Notes under the pieces: generated by a model
Database searches by the model: none
Told to the model about the DNA's origin: nothing
What the model saw: only the letters and a program-made list of their open reading frames with translations
In this document: piece by piece, positions 1,317 through 62,109 of the stretch
How the letters are laid out: each line of letters begins with the position of its first letter
Numbering within the stretch: position 1 is the stretch's first letter
Source of the DNA: Candidatus Omnitrophota bacterium
GTDB lineage: Bacteria; Omnitrophota; Gorgyraeia; Zapsychrales; Fredricksoniimonadaceae
Direction: 5' to 3'
Length of the DNA stretch: 64,000 nt
Assembly (NCBI GenBank): GCA_015233335.1
Contig: JADFXX010000002.1
Coordinates: 891 to 64,890, forward strand
Made by a program: the position numbers and the translations under genes

Positions 1317-1364
1317 AGAAAGTCATTATAACCTAAATAAGAAAATGTACAATTTTACTTCGGT

Positions 1365-7072: not shown

Positions 7073-7081
7073 AATCCAAGT

Positions 7082-9997: not shown

Positions 9998-10025
9998 AGA
10001 TCAACTTTCTTTTTATAGCTCTCCC

Positions 10026-26801: not shown

Positions 26802-27278
26802 TCAGTTCTCGAAAGCTTGCCTGGATTTGCGTTTCTTCTGGAAAAATTCGCTGACTAATGCAGCGCATTCTGCCGCTAAAATACCGCCGGTGACATTCAA
26901 GCGGTGATTTAATGATTTATGATTTGCGATATTTATAACTGAACCACAGGCACCGGTCTTGGGATCTTCGGCTCCAAAACACACACGGCTCATACGTGCT
27001 AAAACCAGTGCTCCGGCGCACATGGAACAAGGCTCAATTGTCACAAAGAGACTGCATTCCTGCAGCCATTTTGATGATAAATAATTCGTTGCCTGAGTGA
27101 TTGCGATCATTTCGGCATGTGCCGTTGGATCTTTAAGCATTTCAATCTGATTATGCGCTCGGGCTATAATTTTATGCTGATAAACCACGATGGCACCCAC
27201 CGGAACCTCATCCGCCAAGGCCGCCTTCTGAGCCTGCCGAACGGCCTCCATCATAAAAATCTCATCATCTTTAAGCAT
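26802..27278 (-). CDS. tadA: tRNA adenosine(34) deaminase
   Basis: 158 aa. HAEM...PCSMCAGAL zinc-binding CDA motifs and typical TadA length. Confidence 0.9.
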   Translation of the reverse strand: MLKDDEIFMMEAVRQAQKAALADEVPVGAIVVYQHKIIARAHNQIEMLKDPTAHAEMIAITQATNYLSSKWLQECSLFVTIEPCSMCAGALVLARMSRVCFGAEDPKTGACGSVINIANHKSLNHRLNVTGGILAAECAALVSEFFQKKRKSRQAFEN

Positions 27279-27281
27279 GGT

Positions 27282-28010
27282 CTATTTGGTTTTATCTATA
27301 GGAAGGAGAATATGAACACTTGTCCCCTTGCGCAGAGAACTTTTAATGTCAATGGAGCCGCCGACAGCTTTGATAATCGAATAGATAATGGAAAGTCCCA
27401 AGCCGGCACTTTTATCAACGCCGCGCTCTTTGGTTGTAAAGAATGGTTCAAATACTTTGGGTAAATGATCCGGTGTAATCCCTACCCCTTCATCAATCAC
27501 AGTAATCCCAACAGCCCTTCGTTCAAGATCCAAATAAGTTTTTAACTTGATCGTTCCGCCACCCGGCATGGCCTGGATGGCGTTAACAAGCACATTATGA
27601 ACGATCTGATGACACTCAATATGTCCCACACCAACCAAAGGCAAGTCTCTTTTTAAATAAGGAATCAGCTTAATACGGGAGAACTCCAACTGCTGACTTA
27701 AAATACCAAGAATATTACTGATGACATCATTGATCTGACAGCTGTTGTCTTCAAGCCTAGCACTACGTTTGCCCATATGCAGCATGCGGCTTGTCGTCTG
27801 CGAACAATATTCCAGTTGACGCTTGAGCTGCTCTAAAGAAGAGATTATGCTTTTAAAATCTTTGTATGAAACATACTCAAAATTGCGGTTTTTATACTCA
27901 TTAATCAATTTTTCGGTATGCGCAAGTACGGATTTAAGGGGAGAATCCAGCTCATGCGCCAAACCGGAAATGATCGTCATGGAGTCAGAGGAAGGCTGAG
28001 TTCTTTTCAT
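27282..28010 (-). CDS. Cytoplasmic histidine kinase core (no sensor domain)
   Basis: 242 aa. H-box LAHELDSPL, ATPase motifs HNVLVNAIQAM, DEGVGI and GLGLSI. The ATG lies 8 nt downstream of the tRNA-Arg 3' end. Confidence 0.75.
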   Translation of the reverse strand: MKRTQPSSDSMTIISGLAHELDSPLKSVLAHTEKLINEYKNRNFEYVSYKDFKSIISSLEQLKRQLEYCSQTTSRMLHMGKRSARLEDNSCQINDVISNILGILSQQLEFSRIKLIPYLKRDLPLVGVGHIECHQIVHNVLVNAIQAMPGGGTIKLKTYLDLERRAVGITVIDEGVGITPDHLPKVFEPFFTTKERGVDKSAGLGLSIIYSIIKAVGGSIDIKSSLRKGTSVHILLPIDKTK

Positions 28011-28018
28011 ATTTAAAA

Positions 28019-28092
28019 CGCGCCTGACAAGATTCGAACTTGTAACCCTCAGTTCCGTAGACTGATGCTCTATCCAGTTGAGCTACAGGCGC
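28019..28092 (-). tRNA. tRNA-Arg (anticodon ACG)
   Basis: Minus strand: GCGCCUG-UA-GCUC..GAGC-A-UCAGU-CUACGGA-ACUGA-GGGUU-ACAAG-UUCGAAU-CUUGU-CAGGCGC-G. No encoded CCA. Confidence 0.9.
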
Positions 28093-28257
28093 AGCAAATC
28101 CGTCCAATAAATTATAAATGGTTGTTATTTATATCAGATTTATTAACGACTGTAAAGGAAGACTTCATATTATGCCCCACCTAAAAGAAGCCTAAAATTA
28201 CAAATAAGGTTACAAAATTTTAAAGCCGTTTAAAGTATCTAATCCGAATTGACCTAA

Positions 28258-42447: not shown

Positions 42448-42448
42448 C

Positions 42449-45473: not shown

Positions 45474-45485
45474 CTCCCTATAGGG

Positions 45486-46703: not shown

Positions 46704-46706
46704 CAG

Positions 46707-48314
46707 TTATTCGTCTTCCGTAACCCTTAAAACCTCGCTGGGGCTGGTTAAACCTTGAGCCACTTTTTCCCATCCATGCTGACGCAACGTCTTCATGCCG
46801 TCTAAAATAGCCAATTGTTTGATGTCCCTGCTGGTCGCCCGTGCGGTAACCAGCATACGCGTTTTTTCATTAAGCACCAAAAATTCACAAATTGCCTGCC
46901 GGCCTCTGTAGCCTGTCATACGGCATTCTTTACACCCTACAGCTTCATAAATGACAGGATCACGGGTAATATGGCTTAACTCAAATTCTTTTTTAATAGT
47001 GTCAGTGAAAGGCGTTTGTTTTTTGCAAGCTGGACACAACAGTCTCACCAAACGCTGCGCTAAAAAACACTCAACGGAGGAAGCGATTAAATAAGGCTCG
47101 ATGCCTATATCGATTAGGCGAGTGACCCCGGAGGCGGCATCATTGGTGTGCAAAGTTGAAAAAACCAGATGACCGGTTAAGGACATTTGGATGGCGATCT
47201 GCGCTGATTCAAAATCACGCACCTCCCCTATCATAATGACATCAGGGTCATTGCGCAGGATGGAACGCAGAGCCGCGGCAAATGTCAGGCCAATAGCTGA
47301 ATTGGCTTGAATTTGCACCGCTCCTTTAAGCTGATATTCCACCGGATCCTCAACTGTGATGATCTTAGTGTCTTCCGAATTGATGGCGGCTAAACACGAG
47401 TACAATGTAGTTGTTTTTCCGCTACCCGTTGGACCAGTTAAAAAAATGATTCCATGCGGTTTATTGATCAAGACCTCTAGCTGTCGACGTTCTTCTCCCA
47501 CAATACCCAATTCCTCAAGATTATATAAACGAAACGCGTTAAGCAAACGAATCACGCAACTTTCCCCGAAAGTAGTAGGTAAAAAAGACACTCTCAAATC
47601 CATATCAGTCCCTTCCACCTTGACTTTAAAGCGGCCGTCCTGCGGAAGACGCTTTTCGGCGATATTCAAGTTTGAAAGGATCTTAACGCGGGAGATCAGG
47701 GCATCCTGAAAATAACGGATATTTTCGGGAACTTGAGCGTCATAAAGCACCCCGTCGATACGATAGCGTATACGCAGCTCATTGCCGAAAGGTTCAATGT
47801 GAATGTCGGTAGCGCCGTCGCGGTGCGCCTGAAATAAGATTTGGTTCAAGAATTGACTGATCGATGCTTCAGAGGAAGATTGATCGATCGCTTCAATAGC
47901 GGGAAGCTCCGGGATCACCATCTGTGCATCAGACATCATTCTTTCGATTGTTTCTGCGCCGAGGCCATAATGTTCCCGAATAGCTTCGATGATGTCTTTT
48001 TCAGCCGCTAAAATAGGTTGAATAGGAGTTTGCGCTACCATACTTAAATCGTCAATCACGGACACTTCCCAGGGATTTCTCATAGCTACCGTCAAAGTCC
48101 CATTTTCATACTTGACAGGAAAAACTTTATAATGATTAACAGCTTTCGCAGGTAGACGGCCTAGGACCTGGGGGGAAACGGTAATTGCTTTTAAAGAAAT
48201 GAAATCAATCTGGCCCGTCATTTTTTGTTCTTCCAAAGCCTGTTTTAACTGCTCCGGGCTTATCACTCCCTTTTTTAATAGCAGCTCTCCTAAAAAAACA
48301 TATGGTTTTTTCAT
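46707..48314 (-). CDS. gspE: T2SS ATPase GspE
   Basis: 535 aa. Walker A GPTGSGKTT, Asp/His boxes, tetracysteine CPACK...CKECRMTGY, N-terminal T2SSE_N region. Confidence 0.9.
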   Translation of the reverse strand: MKKPYVFLGELLLKKGVISPEQLKQALEEQKMTGQIDFISLKAITVSPQVLGRLPAKAVNHYKVFPVKYENGTLTVAMRNPWEVSVIDDLSMVAQTPIQPILAAEKDIIEAIREHYGLGAETIERMMSDAQMVIPELPAIEAIDQSSSEASISQFLNQILFQAHRDGATDIHIEPFGNELRIRYRIDGVLYDAQVPENIRYFQDALISRVKILSNLNIAEKRLPQDGRFKVKVEGTDMDLRVSFLPTTFGESCVIRLLNAFRLYNLEELGIVGEERRQLEVLINKPHGIIFLTGPTGSGKTTTLYSCLAAINSEDTKIITVEDPVEYQLKGAVQIQANSAIGLTFAAALRSILRNDPDVIMIGEVRDFESAQIAIQMSLTGHLVFSTLHTNDAASGVTRLIDIGIEPYLIASSVECFLAQRLVRLLCPACKKQTPFTDTIKKEFELSHITRDPVIYEAVGCKECRMTGYRGRQAICEFLVLNEKTRMLVTARATSRDIKQLAILDGMKTLRQHGWEKVAQGLTSPSEVLRVTEDE

Positions 48315-48345
48315 ATACCCTTAAATCCCATGGTCAAGTGTTTCA

Positions 48346-50172
48346 TTACGGCACAGGAATTGTTGATTCATCTTTAGGCAAAGGATCATAATACGTCTTA
48401 TTGCCTTTTATAGCAGGGGATGTACTTATATATTCTTCAGAGTCGGCATGCACATCTCCATTGATGATATGCGGAGTTAAAAATATAACAATTTCAGATT
48501 TTTGCATATTTCGGTTTTCAGAATTAAACGCTTTACCGATAAAAGGTAAATCCCCTAAGACAGGAACCTTGGTCTTGCTATTGGAAACCTCATCCTTGAT
48601 CAAACCGCCGATGATGATGGTCACCCCATCCTTCACGCGAACGGTGGTTTGGACCTCGGAGGTATCAACAATAGGAATTGTGCTGCCTGTCGTTTTATCT
48701 TGAAAAGGAGTGGCCTCTTCATTGGAAATTTCAGGCTTGATCTTTATCGTAATGTACCCGTCTTCGTGGATGGACGGGGTCACGTGCAGTTTGACCCCGG
48801 TGTCGATAAAATTAACACTTTCTGCAGTGACCGGTGAGCCGGTAGCCGGAGTTGTGATCGAGCTTGTCGTATAAGGAGTGGTCGTTCCGATCAAAATACT
48901 GGCTTCCTGATTGTTGATCACAGCCAAATGAGGATTAGATAATGTGCGTGATTTGCCGAAAGTATCTAATGCTTGAAGAACGATATTATAGTTATCCCTG
49001 TTTAACGTCCCTATGGTCGCAGTACCGACACCGGCCGTTACCGCTCCCGGCAAACTGAAAGCGCTATGAAGGTCCACCACCGAATGGCCTGCTTTCGGAA
49101 TGATCTGTTCCCAATTGATTCCCATCTGATATTGGTCGCTCAAGGTGATCTGGACGATCTTCGCTTCGATAAAAACTTCCTTATCATCACGATCCAGCGC
49201 ATTGATCATGGCCTTGATCTCATCTATTTTAGAAGGGATATCCATCACAACCAGGGTATTGGAACGGGTATCAAATTCGACACTGCCGACATCCTTTGTC
49301 AGCATCGGAGTGATCGTCTTGGCCAGTTCATCGGTTTTCGCGTAATTGATATTAAAAACCTTGGTCTCGCGGGGAATGTCAATCTGCTTAATATACTTGT
49401 CTATTTCTGATAATTTCTTGGGAGTATCTTTGATGAACAGTTTATTGGAGAGACTGTCGAATTTGACACTACCGATCTTAGGACTGGTCATCTCCTGCAA
49501 TTTAGCAACCAGCGGCTGACCGGCTATATGCTGTAATTTATACACCTCCATCTGTGTCGGGGCGTCAATCGTCTTGATATAATCCAGCATTTGATTCAAT
49601 CTCTGAGGGACATCTTCGATAATAATGCTGTTAGATTGATCATCCGCGATCACTTTTCCGGCTTGACTTTTCACTTGGGCCAAGATCGCTACCACATCCG
49701 TTGCTTTTGCCGACTGAAGCGTTACGATGGTGCTCTCCATGCTAACCCCAAATTTATGACCGGTCGTCGCTTCATATTCAGCAGAGGTCATAATTTGAAC
49801 CACCCCACGGTTTTCTAGAAAAGCTAGGTCATTGGCTTGAAGGATGATCGTTAGAGCATCATGCACCTCAACGTTCTGTAAATAAATCGTCACCCGCCCT
49901 GTTATACTTTTTCCCGCGATAATATTTAACCCGGATTTAGCGGCCAATAATTTCAGAACATCATTGATGTCCATATCTTTTATCTCAAGTGTATCTAAAA
50001 TTGTCGACTTTTGTGATAAAGCGGCTAATGACGCATTAACAGCAGAGTCACGGGACGGATTTTCTGTGGGTGTTTCAGGCTTGTTGGCAACATCCAACAA
50101 CGGTTGGGACCAGGAGATACTGGAAGAAAAGAACCAGAAAATAAAAAATATTAGCTTAAAGCCCCTAAACAT
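48346..50172 (-). CDS. gspD: T2SS secretin GspD
   Basis: 608 aa. Signal peptide, N0/N1-type domains, C-terminal secretin core (VPVLGDLPFIGKAF...EIVIFLTPHI). Confidence 0.9.
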   Translation of the reverse strand: MFRGFKLIFFIFWFFSSSISWSQPLLDVANKPETPTENPSRDSAVNASLAALSQKSTILDTLEIKDMDINDVLKLLAAKSGLNIIAGKSITGRVTIYLQNVEVHDALTIILQANDLAFLENRGVVQIMTSAEYEATTGHKFGVSMESTIVTLQSAKATDVVAILAQVKSQAGKVIADDQSNSIIIEDVPQRLNQMLDYIKTIDAPTQMEVYKLQHIAGQPLVAKLQEMTSPKIGSVKFDSLSNKLFIKDTPKKLSEIDKYIKQIDIPRETKVFNINYAKTDELAKTITPMLTKDVGSVEFDTRSNTLVVMDIPSKIDEIKAMINALDRDDKEVFIEAKIVQITLSDQYQMGINWEQIIPKAGHSVVDLHSAFSLPGAVTAGVGTATIGTLNRDNYNIVLQALDTFGKSRTLSNPHLAVINNQEASILIGTTTPYTTSSITTPATGSPVTAESVNFIDTGVKLHVTPSIHEDGYITIKIKPEISNEEATPFQDKTTGSTIPIVDTSEVQTTVRVKDGVTIIIGGLIKDEVSNSKTKVPVLGDLPFIGKAFNSENRNMQKSEIVIFLTPHIINGDVHADSEEYISTSPAIKGNKTYYDPLPKDESTIPVP

Positions 50173-50783: not shown

Positions 50784-53669
50784 TTATTTCTTTGGCGCAA
50801 CAACAGTTACTTTATTAGAAGCCTGACTTTCGATACCGCTCGAGTTAACAGCCGTGACATAGTAACTTCCCGAACTGATACCTAAAACATAAACGCCTGT
50901 TGTGGCCGAAATACTGCCGTAAAAAGAAAAAGTTGTGCCATTTACGGAACCATAAATATTATTCTTTGTAATATTCAGACTATTGGACTGCGTCCATTGT
51001 AAAAGCACCGCGGGAGTCCCTTTGTAGCTTGTCGCTAAACCCGTCAAATTGGCAACAGGCGCCACAGTTACGGAACTTTTGGGTGTCGCGCTCACTTGCA
51101 GAGAATTTGGGCTGACAGCCCCAAACCCGCTTACATTGATATATGTTGAAACAACATAGTAATAAGTTGCCCCATTAACAACCGTCGTGTCCTTAAAATT
51201 ATTGGCTGTGGCATAACCAATGGTACTGTAGGGCCCTCCGTTTACTGTCGATCTTCCGATATAGTACCACAATGCTTGGGATACCGCATTCCATGAAAGG
51301 GTCACACTCCCCGACGCTGGAACAGCAGCCAATCCACTGGGAGCCGGTGGCGGTGCAAACGGAGTGACCATATACAGATTAGAATTCGGGCTTTCTCCTC
51401 CAGCATTGAGGGCACTGACAGTATAATAATAAGTCATTTGGTTTTTGGCGGATGTGTCCACATATGTTAAGTTCTTTGTTTGGCTTGTCAGTACAGTAAA
51501 GGGGCCGCTCGTCGCAGTGGATCTTTTGACATTATACGACGTCGCCCCGACACTGGCATTCCAGGACACGGCAACTTGATTATTACCGGGCATCACTGAA
51601 AGACCTGTAGGAGCCGCCGGAGGCGAAAGGGCCGGAGCCATAGGCTTGGCCTGCACCTGTGAGGAATTGGCACTTTCTCCAGCCGCATTGACTGCGCTCA
51701 CTACATAATAGTATGTTGTTCCATTGGCAACTGACGTGTCCGTATAGCTGCCTGTCTTAACAGCGCCACTGACAGAGATCGTGGAATATGGCCCTGCGCT
51801 GACCGTAGATCTTTTAACATTGTAATAAACAGCTGTTGTGCTGATGCCCCAAGCAAGAGCGACTTGCGCATTGCCTGCGGTAGCATTTAAACTAGTAGGC
51901 ACGGCCGGAGGAACAGCCTTAGTTGATCCAACCAAGTCATTATACAAATTTACACCATTAAAGGCCCCCAAACCCGTTGCATCATCGAAACCCGCCTGAG
52001 CAGTATAATACTGGTTATTGCCGGCTACTATGTCATGAAAATCTGTAGAATATTTGCTGCCAGCAGCTAAGAGATAAAGCACGGGATTTAAAAATCCTAC
52101 GATCGATTGACCGGCGTGTACCCTGCCTTGATTGACCTGGGCCAAAAAAGCAGCCCAGGTCGGTGCAGCTATGCTGGAACCCCAGAAACCATACCACCCT
52201 GAAGATTGAGGAGCGGTCGTTATATAAAAAGCATATGCGGTCGAGGGGTCCGCTGTCAGGGAAACATCCGGCACATTGCGCATAGTTTTTGATACCTTTG
52301 AAGCACTGCTCGCTGTTGATGCCATGGCTTGTTGATAAGAAGGAATAGTGTTAAACATGCTTACCCCACCGCCGCCATAGAGGGATGAGGTCTCACTCTT
52401 ATAGGTCCCATCGGAATTCATGACCAAGGCACTAATCCCAACGCCCGTTGCAAACGGTTGAGAAGAAGGCTCATCGGCTGATAATGTTTTTGTCGAACAA
52501 TCAGCATAAGCTCCGCAATCTCCTGATGCCACAAATACTTCCTGTCCCTGAGCTGCCATTCTTTGAAAAATCTGATTATCAAAACTCACTGTCGGAGCAT
52601 AGTACTCAGCAAGACCCCAGGAACAACTGATGATCTTGGCTAAATTATCATTGGCGATTTTGGTCCACTCATCATCCCAAGCTTGAAACGTGTTCGGGGC
52701 TTCATAAACATAAATCTTGTTAATAGACCAGGGCGCAATCCCTATCAATTCCTCAATATCGAGAGTGACCTCTTCGTTGCCTCCGTTGTAGGTCGGCAAT
52801 CCATTAAATCCATCAACAAGGACATTCTGCAACGTCACACTATTATTAGGAAGATGAAAATAGGATTCATACGCCGCAATGTCGCTTTGTAAATATCCGT
52901 CAAGCTCAAAAAGAGCCACATTTTGCAGTGAACTGGGATCACTGATAGATGGAATGGCGTTAAGATTATACGCTTTTTGCACATCCCCGAAAGCAAGATA
53001 TCCTCCTGGACCTGTGCCCATGTGAGGAACCGCCACCTGAGCTTGACCAAAACTTTGAGAAGGATTGAGTGGCAAGCGGTTCGAATGAGGCTTGAATTTA
53101 AGCGCGTTGTCCATACCCCCAACTGCCCAAACCTTCCCGACAATTTCCGTTGAAATCGTTGGGTTGGCGTCGGGAGCAAAAAACGTTGTACCGTCGTTCT
53201 TGGAATAATGGTTAATATGCACCCCGAAGGTTTTCTCAACGACCCCCACCGCTCCTTTTATCTGCAAAACAGTCCCGTTAGGTGATTGGGTAATTATTGT
53301 AAACCCTCTGGAATTAAAGTAACTTTTTAATTTATTTAAGTCCATATCAGAAGACTTGAACTGCTGATTAAACTGATCTGAAGTTAAAAAATGATGATAA
53401 TTAGGGCTGGTCGGATCATAAATACTTTTAAGCAAAGTGTCTAATTGTACTTGGTTCGTTAAAGGTACTATGATCCTCAAATCCATCATTTCATTAGCAT
53501 CAGCATGGTGATCAAATTTAGACAAAGCCACTGCTTGCGGCACATGTCCGGCCAATGTGCGGCTGCCATCAAGGTTATCTTTGTAATGCAAGGTTGTATC
53601 AGCAAATGAATATTGGGCCATTGCGCCCATAAAAATGACCAATAAAATCTTAAGAAGATTTTTGCGCAT
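50784..53669 (-). CDS. Secreted S53 (sedolisin/kumamolisin-like) serine-carboxyl peptidase with four C-terminal FN3 domains (paralog 1)
   Basis: 961 aa. Signal peptide; pro-kumamolisin-type activation region (DLRIIVPL...YDPTSPNYHHFLTSDQF); catalytic motifs EVTLDIE, ASGDCGAY and WGSSIAAPTWA; four repeats of about 90 aa with YNVKRS / TYYYVVSAVN patterns. Confidence 0.85.
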   Translation of the reverse strand: MRKNLLKILLVIFMGAMAQYSFADTTLHYKDNLDGSRTLAGHVPQAVALSKFDHHADANEMMDLRIIVPLTNQVQLDTLLKSIYDPTSPNYHHFLTSDQFNQQFKSSDMDLNKLKSYFNSRGFTIITQSPNGTVLQIKGAVGVVEKTFGVHINHYSKNDGTTFFAPDANPTISTEIVGKVWAVGGMDNALKFKPHSNRLPLNPSQSFGQAQVAVPHMGTGPGGYLAFGDVQKAYNLNAIPSISDPSSLQNVALFELDGYLQSDIAAYESYFHLPNNSVTLQNVLVDGFNGLPTYNGGNEEVTLDIEELIGIAPWSINKIYVYEAPNTFQAWDDEWTKIANDNLAKIISCSWGLAEYYAPTVSFDNQIFQRMAAQGQEVFVASGDCGAYADCSTKTLSADEPSSQPFATGVGISALVMNSDGTYKSETSSLYGGGGVSMFNTIPSYQQAMASTASSASKVSKTMRNVPDVSLTADPSTAYAFYITTAPQSSGWYGFWGSSIAAPTWAAFLAQVNQGRVHAGQSIVGFLNPVLYLLAAGSKYSTDFHDIVAGNNQYYTAQAGFDDATGLGAFNGVNLYNDLVGSTKAVPPAVPTSLNATAGNAQVALAWGISTTAVYYNVKRSTVSAGPYSTISVSGAVKTGSYTDTSVANGTTYYYVVSAVNAAGESANSSQVQAKPMAPALSPPAAPTGLSVMPGNNQVAVSWNASVGATSYNVKRSTATSGPFTVLTSQTKNLTYVDTSAKNQMTYYYTVSALNAGGESPNSNLYMVTPFAPPPAPSGLAAVPASGSVTLSWNAVSQALWYYIGRSTVNGGPYSTIGYATANNFKDTTVVNGATYYYVVSTYINVSGFGAVSPNSLQVSATPKSSVTVAPVANLTGLATSYKGTPAVLLQWTQSNSLNITKNNIYGSVNGTTFSFYGSISATTGVYVLGISSGSYYVTAVNSSGIESQASNKVTVVAPKK

Positions 53670-53714
53670 AATTTTTCCTTTTAAAAATTGGAAACTGATA
53701 AAGGGAGGGTATTA

Positions 53715-53815
53715 AAAAGAGGTTATCCGAGGTCCGCTCGACTACCATAGGTTGCCCTTTAGGTTCGATCCTTTGCGCCGCCAGGTTTCCCTGACTTTGC
53801 CTTTTACTCTAACCG
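53715..53815 (-). promoter_or_regulatory. Candidate c-di-GMP-I (GEMM-I) riboswitch aptamer (boundaries approximate)
   Basis: Minus-strand RNA: AAAAGGCAAA-GUCAGG-GAAA-CCUGGC-GGCGCAAAGG-AUCGAA-CCUAAAG-G-GCAA-C-CUAUGG-UAGUCGAGCGGACC. This gives GGCAAA, a 6-bp helix with a GAAA tetraloop, CGCAAAG, both halves of a tetraloop receptor, and AGCGG, in the GEMM-I order. Confidence 0.75.
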
Positions 53816-53817
53816 GT

Positions 53818-53846
53818 AGTATACCATCTCATCGATCGGCTGTCAA
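53818..53846 (-). promoter_or_regulatory. Sigma70 promoter driving the riboswitch leader
   Basis: Minus strand: TTGACA (53846..53841), 17 nt (GCCGATCGATGAGATGG), TATACT (53823..53818). Confidence 0.6.
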
Positions 53847-53884
53847 AATGCGGAAAAAAAGAAGATGCACGGCCTTTTCAATTG

Positions 53885-54859
53885 CTATATTTGCAGCCCT
53901 ATACGCAAACCGTACTCTTGGGTATTATTTCTCGGTTCATAAAGAACCGCGGTGGGATCAGTCGGATCAACTTTACTATTAGACTGCGCGATCTTCCAGT
54001 ATCGATAAAATCCTTCTGCAAAAGCAGTAAAATACTTAAAATATAAATTCAACCTTAAAGAGGCCCTCAAGCCATACCCGCCTCTTTGATCTACGACGAG
54101 CGTACTATAACCCGGGATGTCTCCTAATTTGCTCACCTGCCAACCATTAAACATATAATCATACTCAAGGTTGCTTTCAAAACTGGAATTAGGATATTTC
54201 TGATATACAATATCTGCTCCTAAAGGCAAGTAGCAATAATGTGAGAACCTTTTATACCCTTGCAAAGTATACTCATCGGTGACAGTAATCAGCCCTTCTG
54301 AGTTATCTTTCAAATACCTGTAGCCAAAACCAAAGTATCCTGTTGTCCTCAAATAGGAAGAAGGGTAGAAATCTTTTCCGACGACACCTCTTATATCAAA
54401 GGTGCTATCTTTAATGCCAGAAGGCCCTTGATCAGGAGCTTGTTTAAATTTCCCGCTAGCCCACTGCCCTTGAATTCGGAACATATTAATAATGGATTGA
54501 GGAGCGCTAGTCATTCTATGGGAAAATTGGGCACTGTATCCCGACATAAATCCTTTTTGATACATATTCTTAGGCTCGTCGTATTTAGCCCAATACAGTT
54601 CAGGGCTGAAGCTTAACTCATTTGTCTTAGGAGCGATGGCGGGCTTGAAAGAAGGAATTATAATAGTGTTATTCTTAGAAGGAGAAGCAACTGACGGCTT
54701 AATACCCGAAATTTCTATTTTGTCCAATTCTTGATTAACTTGCCGCATATGCACGTAACTGGAGGGCAAGTAATTCTCTGACCAGTTGTCCGCACAACAG
54801 ACAGAAATAGCGAAAAAATATATCGTCGCAGATAAGATAATTAAAGAAAATCGCATCAT
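53885..54859 (-). CDS. Putative outer-membrane beta-barrel protein (unknown family)
   Basis: 324 aa. N-terminal signal, Pro/Ser-rich linker, then about 230 aa with alternating aromatic beta-strand periodicity ending ...YGLRIGLQI. Confidence 0.5.
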   Translation of the reverse strand: MMRFSLIILSATIYFFAISVCCADNWSENYLPSSYVHMRQVNQELDKIEISGIKPSVASPSKNNTIIIPSFKPAIAPKTNELSFSPELYWAKYDEPKNMYQKGFMSGYSAQFSHRMTSAPQSIINMFRIQGQWASGKFKQAPDQGPSGIKDSTFDIRGVVGKDFYPSSYLRTTGYFGFGYRYLKDNSEGLITVTDEYTLQGYKRFSHYCYLPLGADIVYQKYPNSSFESNLEYDYMFNGWQVSKLGDIPGYSTLVVDQRGGYGLRASLRLNLYFKYFTAFAEGFYRYWKIAQSNSKVDPTDPTAVLYEPRNNTQEYGLRIGLQI

Positions 54860-54872
54860 AAGAAATAGACGA

Positions 54873-57743
54873 TCAATAATTTACTGTCACCGAATTGGAA
54901 GCCAAACTTTCAACCCCGCTTGAATTAAAAGCCGTAACTTTATAATTATAAACCGTTCCTTTTGTCGTATTCTTATCCGTGTATGAAGTTGATGCACCAA
55001 CGGTAGCCAACAGAGAATAAGCACCGGCACCTACGGAACGATAAATCTTATTTTGAACTACACCGGGCGCTATTGACTGTGCCCAATATAACACGACCCC
55101 TCCATAGACAATTCTGCCTCCTACTCTGGCCGCTAAAAGCGTTGCTTTTATGTTCGTTGGGGCTGGCATGCCCTGGGGGGCTGCACTTACTTCAAAAGAA
55201 TTGGCCCCTTCACCGGTGCCATTAACCGCACTGACTACGTAGTAATAGGTGGTCCCGTTGGTCAGATTAGTATCTGTATAAGATGGAGTTGTGACTGCTC
55301 CGGGTGTAGATACGGTTGAATATGACCCGCCGCTTGTTGGCGATCTTTTAACATTATAGGACGTTGCACCATTAGCGTTCCAAGTCAATGTTACTTGTTT
55401 ATTACCTGAAGCAGCATTTACTCCCGTCGGAGCTAAGGGCAAAGTTGCCAAGGGTGTGAGCGGTATTTCTACAGAATTCGCACCCTCCCCACTTGCATTA
55501 AGCGCGCTAATGACATAGTAATAAGGGGTGTTGTTGCTAAGGCCGCTGTCTGTAAAAGATGTCCCCGTAACTGTGGCTATGGTTGAATACCCGCTTCCGC
55601 TGGTTAAAGATCTTTTAACATGATACGACGTGGCTGTTGGCGTCACATTCCAATTGATGGTGGCTTGTGTGTTGCCCGGAGTACCGTTCTGTCCTGTCGG
55701 AGCTGACGGAGGGGCAATAGGAGTAGCACTAACCTGAGAAGAAAATGTGCTTTCTTCTCCTAAAATACTAACCGAAGTGACCACATAATAATATGTTGTC
55801 CCATTGATGACATTGGTGTTATCTGTATAAGGAAGCGAGGTTATACCGGTGTATGTTGGTGTTGAATAAGAATTAGAAGTGGTTGACCTGTAAATTTTAT
55901 ACGACACTGCTGCCGGAATAAGACTCCAGGACAGTGTGACTTGGGCATTTCCCGCTGTCGCGGTCAAACCGCTAGGCGTTGCAGCAAAGAGATCATTGTA
56001 CAAACCAAGACCACTAACAGAACCTATCAAAGAACCTAACCCTGTGACAAGGTCATACCCTATTCCTGCTGAAAAGCCATTATTCCCTGAGGTTATATCA
56101 TGATAATCTAGAGCATTGTGACTTCCTTGGGCAATCGTATAAAGTGACGGATTAAGAAAACCAATAGGAGTCTGTCTAACCTGATTAACGCGGGTTACAA
56201 GAGCTGCCCAGATGGGCGTCGCAACACTAGATCCCCAATAACAGCCCCAACTCCCACCAATTAAAACATCATAACAAGAGCTCAGGCTATTATCTGCAGT
56301 TAGGGCTACATCAGGAACATTACGTCCTCCGGCAGTAATGCCGGCCAATCCCTGCTGATACAACGGGACCGGCCAAGTTCCGCTAATCCCTCCGCCGCTT
56401 TCTGAAGAACCCGTTTCAGAGCTCCAATTCCCAGAAGGATCTGTTGTCAAGGCACTGATCCCAACAGCAGTTACACCGGGGTCAGAAGCAGGAGAACTGG
56501 CATTTGTAGTAGGACCGGAAGTGTTGTAAGCTCCTGCATCACCCGACGCTACCATAATAGTCACTCCCTGAGTGGCCATCTGTTGAAAAAGAGTATGCTC
56601 CGTATCGAGAATAGAAAAACCGCTAAAAAGGATAATATTAGCTATCGACTGCTCTGCAATCCCCCATGAAACGCTGACCACTTGTGCTATATTATCACTT
56701 GCGATCCGTTCCCATTCATCAATATAATTCAAAGCAGTATTTTGGGCCTCATAAACCAAGATCTGCTTAAGCCCCTGGGCAATTCCCAATGCTATTTCAA
56801 TGTCCAGCGTCACTTCGTCAGTACTGGGTCCGGCCGACCCATCATACCCATCAATCAAAACATTCTGCAAACTAGGCAAGTGAAAACCAAAATAACCGGC
56901 ATAAGTAGAAATATCACTTGCCAAATATCCATCAAGTTCAAAAAGCGCTAATGTCTGATTATTGCCATCAGTCGTATTCAACGTAAAATTATAAGCTTTA
57001 GCGACATCTTGAGGCTCAAGCCCTCCGTTAGGCCCATGATGAGCTAGGGGTTGCGCCTTCACTCCGCCCGTGGCGGTGACTATACCTTTTTGCAATGACT
57101 TATTTTGCTTGGGGCCTGTATACTTATGGTTAAAAGCCTGAAACTTTACTGCGTTGTCCAACCCGATAACTGCCTTTATTTTCCCTGCCATTGGAGTAGG
57201 AATCGTTGGATCCGCATCAGGAGCGAAAAATAGCGTCCCGTCACTTCTTTTATAATTATTAACGTTAAGCTTAAAAGCATGCTCAACTTTTGATAATGGG
57301 CCTGTCACAGAAAGAATAAGCCCGTTTTTTGACTGTCTCTTAACGGTCAAGCCCAGTGACTTAAGATTTTCTTGAACTATTGAAAAGTCGAGTGCAGAGG
57401 CTCCAAATTGCTGGGCAAATTGTTCAGGAGTTATGAATTTATGATAAATCGGGCTTTGGGGATCGTAAAGGTTCTTAATAAGTTGATCCAATCCGGCTTG
57501 GTCCTTAACAGGCAGAATGATTCGAAGATCAAGCGTTTGATTAGAGTTCGCATGTGCTATTCTTTGGGCTTTGCCTTTAGACACTTCTCCGGGGACGTAA
57601 TTAAGCAGGGTTTGACTGCCATCCGGATTATTTTTAAAATGAGCCGTTAATTTTTTTTCTTGGGCATTGGCCAGAGAACTCAATAAGACAAGAACAGCCA
57701 TTGTCAAATTCCAAAACGTGCCCATCTTTTTAAAAATCGTCAT
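54873..57743 (-). CDS. Secreted S53 (sedolisin/kumamolisin-like) peptidase with C-terminal FN3 domains (paralog 2)
   Basis: 956 aa. Signal peptide (SLANA|QE); pro-domain (DLRIILPV...YDPQSPIYHKFITPEQF); catalytic motifs EVTLDIE, ASGDAGAY and WGSSVATPIWA; FN3 repeats with YNVKRS / TYYYVVSAVN. Confidence 0.85.
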   Translation of the reverse strand: MTIFKKMGTFWNLTMAVLVLLSSLANAQEKKLTAHFKNNPDGSQTLLNYVPGEVSKGKAQRIAHANSNQTLDLRIILPVKDQAGLDQLIKNLYDPQSPIYHKFITPEQFAQQFGASALDFSIVQENLKSLGLTVKRQSKNGLILSVTGPLSKVEHAFKLNVNNYKRSDGTLFFAPDADPTIPTPMAGKIKAVIGLDNAVKFQAFNHKYTGPKQNKSLQKGIVTATGGVKAQPLAHHGPNGGLEPQDVAKAYNFTLNTTDGNNQTLALFELDGYLASDISTYAGYFGFHLPSLQNVLIDGYDGSAGPSTDEVTLDIEIALGIAQGLKQILVYEAQNTALNYIDEWERIASDNIAQVVSVSWGIAEQSIANIILFSGFSILDTEHTLFQQMATQGVTIMVASGDAGAYNTSGPTTNASSPASDPGVTAVGISALTTDPSGNWSSETGSSESGGGISGTWPVPLYQQGLAGITAGGRNVPDVALTADNSLSSCYDVLIGGSWGCYWGSSVATPIWAALVTRVNQVRQTPIGFLNPSLYTIAQGSHNALDYHDITSGNNGFSAGIGYDLVTGLGSLIGSVSGLGLYNDLFAATPSGLTATAGNAQVTLSWSLIPAAVSYKIYRSTTSNSYSTPTYTGITSLPYTDNTNVINGTTYYYVVTSVSILGEESTFSSQVSATPIAPPSAPTGQNGTPGNTQATINWNVTPTATSYHVKRSLTSGSGYSTIATVTGTSFTDSGLSNNTPYYYVISALNASGEGANSVEIPLTPLATLPLAPTGVNAASGNKQVTLTWNANGATSYNVKRSPTSGGSYSTVSTPGAVTTPSYTDTNLTNGTTYYYVVSAVNGTGEGANSFEVSAAPQGMPAPTNIKATLLAARVGGRIVYGGVVLYWAQSIAPGVVQNKIYRSVGAGAYSLLATVGASTSYTDKNTTKGTVYNYKVTAFNSSGVESLASNSVTVNY

Positions 57744-57792
57744 GACTGTTCTCCTTGGATATTAAGAAGCACTTTTTTACAATGTAATAATA

Positions 57793-57812
57793 ATTATACG
57801 TCTTTCAAAGAC
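57793..57812 (-). promoter_or_regulatory. -10 box (TATAAT) abutted by a 13-nt palindrome upstream of S53 paralog 2
   Basis: Minus strand: GTCTTT-G-AAAGAC (57812..57800), G, then TATAAT (57798..57793). No convincing -35. SD AAGGAG lies 7 nt before the ATG at 57743. Confidence 0.3.
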
Positions 57813-57860
57813 TTTAAAAAGAAGAAATAGAATTATTTTGATTAGGGAGAAAACTGCGGA

Positions 57861-59225
57861 TTATTTGCCTAAATCTTTCAACAAACGGTCACGGTCAAGG
57901 CCAATCTTAGCCATGGCTTCTTTAGGGTTAAGCGCATAAAAATGACAAAAAGTGGTCACTTCTTTGATGGTATGGACGTCACGGTCATTCAAGACTTTTA
58001 AAACAGCGCCACGCATCCAGGTTTCATTAATAATATCCCGCGGGGTTAATCCCGCCTCGCGGCTTAAGCGGTCTCGATAAACCGTACTGGGAGAGACCGC
58101 TATAACACGTTTCTGCTCATAACTATATTTAAAAACATGGGAAAGCAACACGCGCACTTCATCCGCACTAGTTTCAGAAATTTCATCGACAACACGAAAT
58201 AGTTGGCCTCCCACATGATAACGTTTGAGGATGACAAACACATCAATTAAATTAATCAACACTTCAGGAACGTTCATGGGTTCGTTGTGAAGCCGCGTGA
58301 TGGTTTCCCTTGCGGTCAGCGCATGAATAGTCCCCATGCAATATTTACCGATATTGACCGCGGTGATCATATCACGGGCCTCTGACCCCCGGACTTCCCC
58401 GACAATAACACGCTCGGGCCTCATACGCAGGCTATTTTTAACCAAGTCCGAAAGGGTCAATTCATCATCGGTTTCCAAGCGGGAAGCACTATCCTCTAGG
58501 AATGTGTTTAACTCCAAGGTGTCTTCGATCACGACCAAACGATCTTTGGGAGGGATAAAGCTCAGCAAAGCATTAAGCAATGTGGTTTTACCAGTCCCCG
58601 GACCGCCGGCAATGATCATGTTAGCCGGCCTCACAGATAAGCCTTCCAGGTAAAGCCACAACTGACCCGCCGCCTCATAACTCATACTTTGACGACGGAT
58701 CAAATCAATAATGCTCAAAGGATCTGTTTTAGCTTTGGTAATGGTCAACTGCACCCCTAAGGGGGAGTCAATGATATTGACACGACCCGCAAGATTTGCT
58801 AATTCCAGATTTGCGATCTTGTGGTAGCCTTTTCGACCCGAAAAAACCAGCAATTTCTGCACAAAATTATTTAATTCATAACGGGAGTTGAAACGCTTAT
58901 CGGTTGCGATGAAACCTTTTTGAGAGTGATGGATATAAATAGGTTTTAAAGCATTAATGATAATATCCTCGACTTCGGCACTGTAAAGCAGATCTTCAAT
59001 GATGTCATAACAGAGGAATTTCTTAATAAAAACGTTTCGATCTTCAGCCGATGCCAGAACATTCGCAAAAGCTTTGCCTTCATCATTGAGTAATTCCTGC
59101 AAAGCAGTTTTAACCACAGAGACCCGCTCCTCCGAAGACTGCATGAGCGTCATACGTCCCATGAGCCGCCCAAGGAGCAATGCTTCCAATTGAAGCTGAT
59201 CATTTTTTGACATAACCGAACTCAA
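57861..59225 (-). CDS. Type II/IV secretion-family ATPase, FlaI / archaeal-type PilB-like
   Basis: 454 aa. Walker A GGPGTGKTT, Walker B region RVIVGEVRG, His-box region GTIHA, and a FlaI-style C-terminal helical tail. The track start is TTG at 59225; an alternative ATG is at 59213. Confidence 0.75.
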   Translation of the reverse strand: MSSVMSKNDQLQLEALLLGRLMGRMTLMQSSEERVSVVKTALQELLNDEGKAFANVLASAEDRNVFIKKFLCYDIIEDLLYSAEVEDIIINALKPIYIHHSQKGFIATDKRFNSRYELNNFVQKLLVFSGRKGYHKIANLELANLAGRVNIIDSPLGVQLTITKAKTDPLSIIDLIRRQSMSYEAAGQLWLYLEGLSVRPANMIIAGGPGTGKTTLLNALLSFIPPKDRLVVIEDTLELNTFLEDSASRLETDDELTLSDLVKNSLRMRPERVIVGEVRGSEARDMITAVNIGKYCMGTIHALTARETITRLHNEPMNVPEVLINLIDVFVILKRYHVGGQLFRVVDEISETSADEVRVLLSHVFKYSYEQKRVIAVSPSTVYRDRLSREAGLTPRDIINETWMRGAVLKVLNDRDVHTIKEVTTFCHFYALNPKEAMAKIGLDRDRLLKDLGK

Positions 59226-59752
59226 TCCTCTTTTTTATGATATTCATCCAACAATCGCCGTATATCAGTAGGTGAATTTTTAGCAATTTGAGAACAGACA
59301 AAGATCAACAACGAGAACTGCCAAACATCGTCAGGCCCGCAAACTAAACCTGCAGATGTATTTTCCTCTCTCTGCAATTGATTCCCATATACTCCAATAG
59401 CATTTTCTATTTTACCTTCAAAAACGTTCAAAGAGAAAATTTTATTATCATATTTCATGGAAGGCAGGGTAACCCCCCTGACCATGAGAAAATTAATCAT
59501 GGTGTTTTCAAGAAAAGAGCCTTCACCGAGATCAAAACCTTCCAGTTGAGGGATATTCGGAGGTAAGATCAAGGTTGGCCGATGGACCAACACTTCTCCC
59601 GTACGCACAACCGTATCGCCTTCGTTAATGACAGACGGTGATAAAAGTATATACGGCACATGCGTTTCAGAGAAGGTTTGCAGACCTGTGACCCTTGAAC
59701 GGATGATGTTTGTTTCTTTTAAAGCCTTTTCCCAAGCTGAATGGACATCCAT
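59222..59752 (-). CDS. Hypothetical cytoplasmic protein (no recognisable domain)
   Basis: 176 aa. Start lies 1 nt after the upstream stop, and its stop overlaps the ATPase TTG start. No TM helix or nucleotide-binding motif seen. Confidence 0.5.
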   Translation of the reverse strand: MDVHSAWEKALKETNIIRSRVTGLQTFSETHVPYILLSPSVINEGDTVVRTGEVLVHRPTLILPPNIPQLEGFDLGEGSFLENTMINFLMVRGVTLPSMKYDNKIFSLNVFEGKIENAIGVYGNQLQREENTSAGLVCGPDDVWQFSLLIFVCSQIAKNSPTDIRRLLDEYHKKED

Positions 59753-59753
59753 A

Positions 59754-60191
59754 TCAATGACGGATCCTTACTTTAAAATTAGAAACAAGCAACACTCCAT
59801 TTTGCGCCTTAATTTGAACCTCAAGGATATCTGGAGCTTGGGACTGACGGCGGATAAACAACCCACCAATATGATCCGCGATCAAAACAGCCTGCCCCTT
59901 GTTAAGACGCCACAAATGTTCATTCTTTAACTCATACTCCAAGGCGCCCTGCCCTGTGTGCTCAAATGCAATACGACCATGCCATCGACCATCGGCAGGC
60001 ACATCCTGAATAGTGTCTTCACGGGCCTCGCGTAGATCAAACATCAGATGATCCAATGCTTTACGAATTTCGTGGGCCAAGATGACTTTTTGATGATAAT
60101 CTTCTTTATTTTTAACTTTAAAGAAGATGACTATCATCAAAGCCAAAAGACCGATGAGCAGAAAAGCGCATATAATTTTTATTTTATTCAT
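59754..60191 (-). CDS. Hypothetical single-pass membrane protein
   Basis: 145 aa. N-terminal TM helix IICAFLLIGLLALMIVIFF plus a beta-rich soluble domain. ATGA overlap with the SPFH gene. Confidence 0.5.
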   Translation of the reverse strand: MNKIKIICAFLLIGLLALMIVIFFKVKNKEDYHQKVILAHEIRKALDHLMFDLREAREDTIQDVPADGRWHGRIAFEHTGQGALEYELKNEHLWRLNKGQAVLIADHIGGLFIRRQSQAPDILEVQIKAQNGVLLVSNFKVRIRH

Positions 60192-60964
60192 GAATCCTTC
60201 TTTTCTCCGAGTTTTGCTGTCAGGGCCCTGACTGATTCTAAAATATCGATGGGAACGGCCAGTACGACAGTATTTGATGGTGTGGGCCCAAGCCCATCAA
60301 TAGTTTGAAGGGTCCTTAACTGCATGGCGCCGGGAGACTGGGTCATTGTTTTGGCAGCTTCTGCCAAATTGAAAGCCGCTAATTTATCCCCTTCCGCCTT
60401 GGTAATGGTCGCTCTTTTCTCTCTTTCCGCAGATGCCTGCCGGGACATCATCTTTTTTAATTCTTCAGGCACATCCACATCCAGGATCTTGATAGCTGTT
60501 ACATTAAGCCCCCAAGTCTCTGCCTGCTTTTGAATGATCGCTTCAATTTCATCACCGATCTTCTGTCTTTCCGCTAAAAGATCATCAAAGGTCATCCCGC
60601 CAACCACATCTCTTAAGGCTGCCTGAGCGTATTGTGAAACGGCGTATAAATAATTTTGGACTTTAATAACTGCTGTTTGGGCATCAACAACCTGAAAATA
60701 GACTACCCCATTAATTGATACCGGCACATTATCTTTTGTGATCGCTTGCTGTTTAGGAATATCATTGGTCAATACCCGCATATCCACAACTCTTGCGTAC
60801 TCAATGACGGGAATTAAAAAATTCAATCCCGGCTGAAGCGTTCTGGAGTACCGTCCAAGCTGAAAAACAACACCGGTTTCATACTGCTGAATGATCCTGA
60901 TAGAAGAAATCAATATCACAATCAAAACTGGAATTAATATGACCCCCATAAGAATTGCCCTCAC
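60188..60964 (-). CDS. SPFH/band-7 (slipin/stomatin-like) membrane-scaffold protein
   Basis: 258 aa. N-terminal TM helix, QYETGVVFQLGRYSRTLQPGLNFLIP motif, C-terminal coiled coil. Confidence 0.85.
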   Translation of the reverse strand: MRAILMGVILIPVLIVILISSIRIIQQYETGVVFQLGRYSRTLQPGLNFLIPVIEYARVVDMRVLTNDIPKQQAITKDNVPVSINGVVYFQVVDAQTAVIKVQNYLYAVSQYAQAALRDVVGGMTFDDLLAERQKIGDEIEAIIQKQAETWGLNVTAIKILDVDVPEELKKMMSRQASAEREKRATITKAEGDKLAAFNLAEAAKTMTQSPGAMQLRTLQTIDGLGPTPSNTVVLAVPIDILESVRALTAKLGEKKDS

Positions 60965-61049: not shown

Positions 61050-61141
61050 TGGCGGAGAGGGAGAGATTTGAACTCTCGATCCGAGTTACCCCGGACAACG
61101 GTTTTCGAGACCGCCGCATTCGACCACTCTGCCACCTCTCC
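61050..61141 (-). tRNA. tRNA-Ser (anticodon CGA), CCA encoded
   Basis: Minus strand: GGAGAGG-UG-GCA..UGC-G-GCGGU-CUCGAAA-ACCGU, long variable arm, GAGAG-UUCAAAU-CUCUC, CCUCUCC-G-CCA. Confidence 0.9.
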
Positions 61142-61288: not shown

Positions 61289-61591
61289 TTAATAAGTGAA
61301 AAAAATGATATAAAGCAAGACGCAGATAATGACGGTAGTAATTAAATAAAAATCGTTAAAATAGAAAAAATCCCTGAGGCGCTCACCCGCGGTATAAATC
61401 TGGATCACATTTTCAGAAACAACCTCACCGCTGGTACGCATGCCTACGACTTCATTGCGTTTAAGGCGCAAAAACTGGTCCGCGATCTTATACGCCTGTA
61501 AGTTGCCGCCTTCAATAAGATCCATGACCTTTTTTTCAGATACGCTTAAAATTTGAGCTGTTTCACGTACGGTAATATATTGACTGCTCAT
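61289..61591 (-). CDS. Excisionase-family HTH (HTH_17-type) protein with C-terminal TM anchor
   Basis: Likely start MSSQYITVRETAQILSVSEKKVMDLIEGG at 61591, an ATGA overlap with the bactofilin stop. C-terminal helix YLITTVIICVLLYIIFF. Confidence 0.65.
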   Translation of the reverse strand: MSSQYITVRETAQILSVSEKKVMDLIEGGNLQAYKIADQFLRLKRNEVVGMRTSGEVVSENVIQIYTAGERLRDFFYFNDFYLITTVIICVLLYIIFFTY

Positions 61592-62109
61592 GATTTGACC
61601 CTGCCTGAGGCAGCCCACACATCGATTTGGGCCCGCTCAAATTTCCAATTCTCTCCCTCTCTAATAGCAGGGATCTTACCGGTTGTGGCTAACTCTATAA
61701 TGGCCGGTATATCAATTTCCAAATATTGTGCAAGATCATCAATGCTTAAAATATCTTCCAGCATGTGGCAGTGTCCCTGAAAAATAGCGCCCTCGACAAT
61801 GTTTAACTTGGGCGTCGATATATCCCCATGCAAAACCGCGGTTGGCATCAACACCAGCATTTTTTTGGCTGTACAGTTACCTTTGACTTTCCCTGCAACA
61901 ATGACATTATCACCGACAATATTGGCCTCAACTTGTGCTGTGGGACCTATGGTCAGAGTGCCACGGGTATCGAGCTTTCCCGTATAACGGCCGTGAATCT
62001 TTAAATTCACCGGATCAGCAAAAGTCAAAGACCCTTCCATTTGGGCATTGATTTCAACCACTTTTTCTTCCGGCAACTCTTTGGGTTCTTTACGGTTAAA
62101 TGCCATCAA
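61588..62109 (-). CDS. Bactofilin fused to a C-terminal excisionase-family HTH domain
   Basis: 173 aa. Bactofilin beta-helix repeats (GSLTF...GRYTGKL...GTLTIG...ANIVGDNVIVAGKVKGN...LHGDISTPKLNIVEGAIFQG), then LSIDDLAQYLEIDIPAIIELATTGKIPAIREGENWKF. Confidence 0.75.
   Translation of the reverse strand: MMAFNRKEPKELPEEKVVEINAQMEGSLTFADPVNLKIHGRYTGKLDTRGTLTIGPTAQVEANIVGDNVIVAGKVKGNCTAKKMLVLMPTAVLHGDISTPKLNIVEGAIFQGHCHMLEDILSIDDLAQYLEIDIPAIIELATTGKIPAIREGENWKFERAQIDVWAASGRVKS

Follow-up and report, generated by a model that had tools for sequence, protein, structure and literature searches.

Conserved pairing of a FlaI/CpaF-related ATPase with the soluble protein P176 in Omnitrophota, at loci lacking adjoining platform and pilin genes

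We examined a 64,000-nucleotide stretch of DNA from the metagenome-assembled genome of a Candidatus Omnitrophota bacterium (assembly GCA_015233335.1, contig JADFXX010000002.1, positions 891 to 64,890; hereafter the window), focusing on a compact minus-strand operon that encodes, in order of transcription, a stomatin-like SPFH protein, a 145-residue membrane protein (TM145), a 176-residue soluble protein (P176) and an ATPase of the T2SSE secretion superfamily. A preliminary description of this DNA, made from the sequence alone, had proposed four packed open reading frames (ORFs) here, and all of them were found on the minus strand (SPFH 60188-60964, TM145 59754-60191, P176 59222-59752 and ATPase 57861-59225). 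With the gene starts that we prefer, the operon and its boundaries are as follows:

61050..61141, minus strand: tRNA-Ser(cga), the upstream boundary of the operon (ARAGORN; Rfam tRNA, 59 bits)
60188..60949, minus strand: SPFH gene of the stomatin/slipin type, 253 residues (start ATG 60949; mechanical ORF from GTG 60964)
59754..60191, minus strand: TM145 gene, encoding a 145-residue bitopic membrane protein
59222..59752, minus strand: P176 gene, encoding a 176-residue soluble acidic protein
57861..59213, minus strand: ATPase gene, T2SSE superfamily, 450 residues (start ATG 59213; mechanical ORF from TTG 59225)
57744..57860, minus strand: spacer of 117 nucleotides between the ATPase stop and the start of an S53 peptidase gene (57743)

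Two of the junctions listed in the preliminary description, the ATGA overlap of SPFH and TM145 (60191-60188) and the TGA-T-ATG between TM145 and P176 (59756-59750), can be read directly in the sequence. The third, a TTGA, exists as a TTG/TGA overlap at 59225-59222, but translation of the ATPase most likely begins at ATG 59213 instead (N-terminus MSKNDQLQLE), because orthologues begin with MNKN[DE]..LE; the P176/ATPase junction is therefore a stop codon, 8 nucleotides and an ATG, which is still tight. From ATG 60949 the SPFH product is identical (100%, full length) to a deposited 253-residue protein, and HQL14_01270 and HQL14_01275 match P176 and TM145, respectively, with 100% identity. Overlapping or abutting junctions occur in about 18 same-strand gene pairs within the window, so that the packing seen here signals an operon and nothing more. 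The gap of 117 nucleotides between the operon and the S53 gene was as previously given, and a consensus scan found in it a promoter-like site (TTGAAA-16-TACATT, 57808-57781, minus strand) and no terminator-like hairpin; the same scan found no clear promoter before the SPFH gene, and an Rfam scan matched only tRNA.

The ATPase carries a T2SSE domain (Pfam PF00437; 109.2 bits against a cut-off of 24.9, E = 2.4e-31), and both the Walker A sequence GGPGTGKTT and the two C-terminal strings quoted in the preliminary description are present in its translation. The Walker A motif, the Asp box, the Walker B motif with its catalytic glutamate and the His box are invariant across 30 orthologues (GGPGxGKTT, IEDxxEL, RPERxxxGEVRG and TxHA), and by its sequence the protein looks catalytically active and of the hexameric type. 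NCBIfam ranked FlaI first (NF058587, 181.2 bits against a cut-off of 550) and the TadA family second (TIGR03819, 138.8 bits against a cut-off of 373, E = 2.4e-40). When a profile of the 30 orthologues was compared with proteins of known structure, the best match was afGspE (PDB 2OAP, 204 bits), followed by CpaF/TadA (PDB 8RJF and 9E24, 171 bits), FlaI/ArlI (PDB 4II7, 159 bits) and VirB11 (91 bits), with PilT, GspE and PilB each below 50 bits. One of the orthologues (locus L001, 10536-11894) also has a weak precomputed match to PF27713, "UCP018868", an entry whose name retrieved nothing from the literature.

Homology to afGspE and FlaI extends over almost the entire length of the ATPase including its C-terminal domain (profile positions 26-439 and 26-424, respectively), and the layout of N- and C-terminal domains and the catalytic motifs are the same; the Omnitrophota protein differs in having a bacterial host and in being about 60 residues shorter at its N-terminus. 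Similarity to CpaF is comparable in the core (positions 34-367), and CpaF has the smallest distance to the ATPase in a trimmed alignment (0.703), but the alignment with CpaF stops there and the insertion that is specific to CpaF after the His box is missing. The last ~70 residues can be aligned with archaeal proteins only, forming an archaeal-type C-terminal domain, as the preliminary description had noticed. The phylogeny that it had proposed as a check was run as a small neighbour-joining tree with three PDB references only (CpaF, FlaI and afGspE; 200 bootstraps), in which the Omnitrophota ATPases are monophyletic and form a sister group to CpaF+(FlaI+afGspE) in 120 of the 200 bootstraps, thus branching outside the FlaI+afGspE pair in most of them, with sister positions to CpaF alone and to the archaeal pair recovered in 44 and 36 bootstraps. 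The sequence is far nearer to afGspE/FlaI and CpaF than to GspE, PilB or PilT, in agreement with the earlier assignment, and its closest affinity may lie with either the archaeal proteins or CpaF. We therefore read the ATPase as a probable distinct, deep branch of the FlaI/afGspE/CpaF (archaeal/Tad) group, apparently separate from FlaI orthologues and from ordinary CpaF proteins alike.

Scanning the GTDB species representatives with a close-family pattern retrieved relatives of P176 in 166 species, from which 80 loci were kept. Wherever their taxon labels are specific, these loci carry the name Omnitrophota/Omnitrophica, except for L068 (Elusimicrobia); the rest are labelled "Planctomycetales" (mostly "uncultured Planctomycetales") or just "bacterium" (L019). 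P176 and the ATPase are co-directional in 62 of the 80 loci, and the ATPase is present in 56 of the 57 loci that offer at least 4.3 kb downstream of P176. The two genes are directly adjacent in 14 loci (gaps of -20 to +74 nucleotides), and in 48 loci a protein of about 865 residues is encoded between them, with overlapping or adjacent junctions. This intervening protein is a tandem M16 peptidase with two M16 + M16_C pairs (Pfam); the HxxEH motif is present in the first half of all 51 sequences and in the second half of none, and 45 of the 51 begin with a hydrophobic run consistent with a signal peptide, so that the peptidase looks catalytically intact and secreted. In L054 (1403-5374) M16 and the ATPase form a single ORF of 1323 residues, which could stem from the loss of a stop codon, from misassembly or from a genuine fusion; the last of these, joining a signal-peptide protease to a cytoplasmic ATPase, would be topologically odd.

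When the neighbours in the 80 loci were clustered, no family of platforms, pilins, secretins or other polytopic membrane proteins recurred within 6 kb; the only other recurrent neighbours are a 242-residue HATPase_c protein and a TadA deaminase, both downstream. Unlike in the FlaI system, no gene for FlaJ/TadC, archaellin or pilin, FlaH, FlaG/F or a prepilin peptidase adjoins the ATPase in the 62 ATPase loci and, unlike in Tad systems, tadB/tadC, rcpA/cpaC, tadZ/cpaE and flp do not occur among the recurrent neighbours (80 loci, neighbourhoods only). The earlier statement that pilin and platform genes are lacking thus holds for the operon and for the 80 loci, but not for the window, where a complete type II secretion system (T2SS) lies on the same strand. 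In the window's clade, parts of type IV pili or T2SSs are found near the module in L005 (4223-5539, a PilB/GspE-type ATPase) and, as secretin-like ORFs, in L006 (7546-9552) and L007 (613-3135), and an ExeA-like AAA protein is also among these parts; none is conserved between loci.

The preliminary description had treated SPFH, the two small proteins and the ATPase as one four-gene unit, and by the refuting condition that it had itself set, a lack of synteny of the four genes in relatives, this unit for the most part did not hold. The window and L004, its closest relative, are the only places where SPFH stands beside P176; the gene is missing from the other 79 loci. TM145 is detectable in 21 of the 80 loci (hidden Markov model search), all in the part of the tree nearest the window. 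The conserved unit is P176 plus the ATPase, usually with M16, and the stomatin and TM145 are later, local additions. We found no description of this operon module, or of the P176 and TM145 families, in the searchable literature.

P176 has no transmembrane segment by hydropathy and is acidic (isoelectric point 5.1). Across the Omnitrophota classes its sequences are 53-92% identical and always lie upstream of the ATPase; a wider collection comprised 566 homologues at 66-100% identity, giving 193 representatives after clustering at 50%. Comparison across phyla leaves G, P, Y and F as the invariant residues, none of them of a catalytic type. An AlphaFold2 model from an alignment of 83 sequences (pLDDT 85, the model's own confidence measure) predicts an alpha/beta domain followed by a long C-terminal helix, an earlier model from a shallow alignment having been unusable (pLDDT 56); Foldseek found no significant structural relative of the model in PDB or BFVD. 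The earlier observation that the protein carries no recognisable motif was borne out by scanning all 83 members, which matched no Pfam family, and more generally no Pfam, NCBIfam, PADLOC or PDB-sequence match was obtained for any scanned member of the P176 or TM145 families. The small proteins were also rightly said not to resemble NfeD, as PF01957 gave no match up to E = 1 in 32 TM145 and 83 P176 family members. Sequence and model together make P176 look more like an adaptor than an enzyme.

Several candidate identities of P176 were rejected. An SPFH-like fold was unsupported (weak prohibitin/HflK matches only, with a profile-profile probability of 0.35%), and sequence comparison did not favour a GspL/PilM-like adaptor either (hhalign probability 0.09%). 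Matches to CoiA_C in 7 of the 83 members (best E = 0.023) were treated as noise, longer representatives that might have passed for Rosetta-stone fusions proved to be mis-called starts, often translated tRNA, and PADLOC gave nothing relevant to a role in defence. P176 also has neither a P-loop nor a Pfam match that would liken it to FlaH/ArlH, and the sole platform gene in the window is GspF.

Outside Omnitrophota the P176 family continues in more distant members of about 225-237 residues with a C-terminal GLFExYQDRFF extension, in SAR202 and other Chloroflexota and in other lineages too. For the SAR202-type subfamily, a close-family scan gave 80 marine metagenome loci (L097-L176, 52-99% identity). 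Of the 46 loci that extend far enough, 31 have the gene of a membrane-anchored Peptidase_MA_2 protein as the direct upstream neighbour; in 36 of 38 a pair of HflK/HflC-like Band_7 genes follows about 2 kb further on, with a 405-residue HExxH membrane protein encoded between the P176 relative and this pair. The whole cluster, seen in L086-L088 and L097-L176, comprises Peptidase_MA_2, the P176-family gene, a HAD hydrolase on the opposite strand, the 405-residue HExxH protein, the HflK- and HflC-like genes and YbeY, and this protease/SPFH cluster is undescribed.

In other lineages the P176 relatives are found in the order NfeD-NfeD-FloA-YqfB-P174 (L091), behind an M48 peptidase and an 82-residue ORF (P191 in L090), after a Yip1 membrane protein (L084) and after a 162-residue bitopic protein (L089); those of L085 and L092 have no protease or SPFH link. 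The ATPase occurs in none of these non-Omnitrophota loci, a T2SSE gene in L091 being of the unrelated PilB/GspE type (20% identity) and rejected as an orthologue. It is unlikely that members of three SPFH subfamilies and of four or five families of protease stand beside the P176 family by accident; since few independent lineages are involved, we take this neighbourhood as a lead and not as a statistic. It agrees with the presence of M16 within the operon in Omnitrophota, and of a stomatin and S53 peptidases beside it in the window.

The two upstream genes of the window operon were considered in the same way. TM145 is a single-pass protein, as had been proposed, with one N-terminal transmembrane helix (residues ~6-24, by hydropathy and alignment) followed by an amphipathic helix and a beta-rich domain; its isoelectric point is 9.3, and the beta-rich domain has a conserved VPADGxWH motif. 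Its 24 homologues, none of them named, are restricted to one Omnitrophota subclade. A degenerate minor pseudopilin with a GspJ-like pattern was rejected (hhalign probability at most 0.3% against three pseudopilins of the window, with no match to the N_methyl or T2SS pseudopilin families of Pfam), and the N-terminus, MNKIKII, does not contain the prepilin G/F-E5 motif; a short NfeD likewise had no support in Pfam. The SPFH protein has a Band_7 domain (Pfam, E = 4.8e-41, 141 bits) and one N-terminal membrane segment, with the hydropathy peak at residue 4. The earlier slipin-type assignment agrees with its PDB matches, which are far stronger to PH1511 stomatin (E = 7.6e-49) and human stomatin (2e-47) than to HflK (6.6e-10). 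In L001-L003 a prophage-like block (L001, ~570-9450) lies directly upstream of TM145, where other loci have tRNA-Ser and the window has SPFH; it contains a terminase, a DNA methylase, MazG-like and helix-turn-helix (HTH) regulatory genes, a resolvase and an integrase.

In this lineage the four genes might nevertheless encode one machine, with the stomatin acting as a scaffold whose microdomain would hold TM145, P176 and the ATPase. The ATGA and TGA-T-ATG junctions chain the first three genes, in L004 P176 follows SPFH after 42 nucleotides, P176 relatives lie no more than three genes from other SPFH subfamilies (FloA in L091, HflK/C-like in SAR202), and small bitopic proteins precede them in L089 and L091. 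We nonetheless consider such a machine quite unlikely: besides the restriction of SPFH to two loci and the general frequency of tight junctions in this genome, TM145 and SPFH occur together in no related locus, L004 having SPFH without TM145 and the loci L001-L014 otherwise having TM145 without SPFH. The SPFH protein is moreover strongly conserved on its own (81-94% identity), fitting an independent housekeeping role, and in another Omnitrophota genome an orthologue of 88% identity (L095/L096) is located elsewhere, between Mrp/ParA-like and DRTGG genes, with succinyl-CoA ligase and NADH dehydrogenase genes as further neighbours.

Known SPFH systems offer partial parallels. As in the stomatin-NfeD operons (Pyrococcus PH1511/PH1510; E. 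coli qmcA-ybbJ), a stomatin-type SPFH gene is here coupled to that of a small membrane protein, and as in HflK/C-FtsH-like settings a hexameric ATPase and proteases are nearby; P176 relatives elsewhere are indeed found in NfeD-FloA and HflK/C-protease clusters. Unlike in the stomatin-NfeD operons, TM145 has no NfeD domain and mostly stands without SPFH, which is not a conserved neighbour, and unlike FtsH the Omnitrophota ATPase is not an AAA+ protein and has no protease domain.

The operon is set in a frame of tRNA genes. The usual order, found in most loci, is tRNA-Ser, TM145 (where present), P176, M16 (where present), ATPase, tRNA-Arg(acg), the HATPase_c protein, TadA and tRNA-Ser(gct), with serS upstream in several loci; examples of this frame are L007, L008, L013 and L020, among others. 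TadA edits tRNA-Arg(ACG), and the genes of the enzyme and its substrate are therefore neighbours across the phylum. In the window the downstream part of the frame is displaced, and the features concerned are:

40484-50172, minus strand: complete T2SS (GspD, E, F, G, minor pseudopilins, K and L/M)
26802..28093, minus strand: tRNA-Arg(acg), 242-residue HATPase_c protein and TadA-type deaminase (ARAGORN, Pfam and BLAST)

The HATPase_c protein of the window is 68-71% identical (BLAST) to those that follow the ATPase in relatives, and about 29.8 kb (28094-57860) now parts the ATPase from tRNA-Arg(acg), which is adjacent in most relatives; this stretch looks like a large insertion or rearrangement. 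It contains the T2SS, two S53 peptidases with FN3 repeats, a 324-residue ORF without a family match, LysR and cNMP-binding regulators, Nuo-like/NiFe hydrogenase genes and hypF/D/E.

The tRNA frame raises the alternative that the ATPase is non-secretory and acts on nucleic acid or RNA, with the tRNA/serS/tadA context reflecting its function: tRNA-Ser and tRNA-Arg(ACG) frame the operon, TadA comes after it and serS stands upstream in several loci, no membrane partner is conserved, and the archaeal MJ1533-like proteins, for which such a role has been proposed, set a precedent for members of the superfamily that do not take part in secretion (PMC4858521). Such a role is disfavoured because the ATPase matches the secretion ATPases afGspE and FlaI from end to end, P176 is acidic, and a secreted M16 peptidase within the operon does not fit. 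Furthermore, Pfam found no PIN, KH or other nucleic-acid-binding domain in the ATPase, its NCBIfam match to PINA was negligible (E = 0.0023, 16.6 bits), and tRNA genes often mark stretches of conserved synteny. Altogether we regard a role of this kind as very improbable.

To our knowledge, a secretion ATPase from the archaeal/Tad branch is regarded as always needing a FlaJ/TadC platform and pilins as its partners. The T2SS of the window includes an ATPase of the same superfamily and lies 7.7 kb from the operon ATPase on the same strand. It has its own canonical GspE (432 bits to T2SSE, with an MshEN domain), only distantly related to the operon ATPase (distance 0.86), and the block is missing between the ATPase and tRNA-Arg in relatives, so that the T2SS is not an original partner of the operon ATPase. 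Two paralogous S53 peptidases of about 960 residues (pro-kumamolisin type) flank the 324-residue ORF (50784-57743) and come just before the T2SS operon on its upstream side; these peptidases are plausible T2SS cargo.

The partners could also be dispersed over the genome, the ATPase being the TadA/FlaI-like motor of a type IV filament whose platform, pilins and secretin are encoded elsewhere, with P176, M16, TM145 and SPFH as passengers kept by inherited gene order. The ATPase does fall within the CpaF/FlaI/afGspE group, its surroundings are a conserved housekeeping stretch, and filament genes occur near the module (the T2SS of the window, the PilB-like gene of L005 and the secretin-like genes of L006 and L007). 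Omnitrophota genomes are, in addition, rich in genes for type IVa pili, Tad systems and T2SSs (PMC10066038; bioRxiv 10.64898/2026.06.07.730766), and pilins supplied in trans can serve the ATPase/TadC modules of archaea (PMC4858521). The normal arrangement in archaea and Tad systems, though, has the ATPase beside its TadC/FlaJ platform (PMC4858521), and no such platform recurs in the 62 ATPase loci; the pairing of P176 and the ATPase, with its overlapping junctions, persists across classes while nearly all else changes, and the nearby T2SS/PilB-type genes have ATPases of their own and are not conserved neighbours. We thus see a dispersed filament motor as a somewhat unlikely explanation.

The explanation that we favour, though tentatively, is that P176 is the cytoplasmic partner of the ATPase, and that the pair works with extracytoplasmic proteases at the membrane to export, mature or turn over envelope proteins, the link to the membrane being supplied in trans. 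The ATPase would form a hexamer and hydrolyse ATP on the inner side of the cytoplasmic membrane, and P176 would serve as its dedicated cytoplasmic adaptor or regulator, in a role like that of FlaH, GspL/PilM or TadZ. P176 might couple the ATPase to a membrane component outside the operon's conserved core, which could be TM145 where it is present and otherwise a platform encoded elsewhere, unknown or shared. The output would be export, maturation or turnover of envelope proteins with the proteases, namely M16 in most species and possibly the adjacent S53 enzymes here. The physical contact between P176 and the ATPase, the coupling to the membrane and the class of substrate are what we infer from the gene content, the conservation of the pair, the intact motifs, the solubility of P176 and the protease/SPFH neighbourhoods of its relatives.

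Several observations weigh against this explanation. The gene order in a tRNA-rich housekeeping stretch (serS, tRNA-Ser, tRNA-Arg, tadA) could be inherited synteny without functional coupling. M16 would lie in the periplasm and the ATPase in the cytoplasm, with no conserved link across the membrane between them; in the window's own clade M16 has been lost from the operon, and no M16 gene is found anywhere in the window. The search of PDB and BFVD brought up no structural relative of P176 to back its role as an adaptor, and, since its relatives outside Omnitrophota occur without the ATPase, P176 does not need one.

On a further reading, the P176 family would be an undescribed cytoplasmic partner of membrane protease/SPFH quality-control modules, which in Omnitrophota would have recruited a hexameric secretion-type ATPase of the archaeal/Tad branch, giving a new ATP-driven machine that exports or turns over envelope proteins and is free of a type IV filament platform and pilins. 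The reading draws on the M16, MA_2, M48 and NfeD proteases and the stomatin, FloA and HflK/C-like proteins that the family adjoins in at least four lineages; as things stand we consider it unlikely.

In kind, the operon is a known one, that of a secretion-superfamily ATPase, and what makes it unusual is an archaeal-type C-terminus in bacteria, the lack of adjacent platform and pilin genes in 62 loci, a new partner that looks obligate and an embedded M16 peptidase. Omnitrophota are an uncultivated, largely ultra-small and probably host-dependent phylum, in which a conserved ATPase clade pairs with a soluble protein and usually with a secreted protease; this clade either uses partners in trans in an unusual manner or does something new. 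The unit worth study is P176 with the ATPase, with or without M16, and not the SPFH quartet, and the position of P176 beside proteases and SPFH proteins gives a testable lead on bacterial SPFH/protease clusters and on the upkeep of the envelope and surface machinery of Omnitrophota.

Two further features of the window were noted. At 61289-62109 a bactofilin fused to a C-terminal HTH_17 domain (173 residues) overlaps a 109-residue HTH_17 ORF, a pair that is also present in L004. At 8402-12606 lie unrelated signalling genes, encoding a response regulator with GGDEF and HD-GYP-type HD domains and a PocR/PAS histidine kinase.

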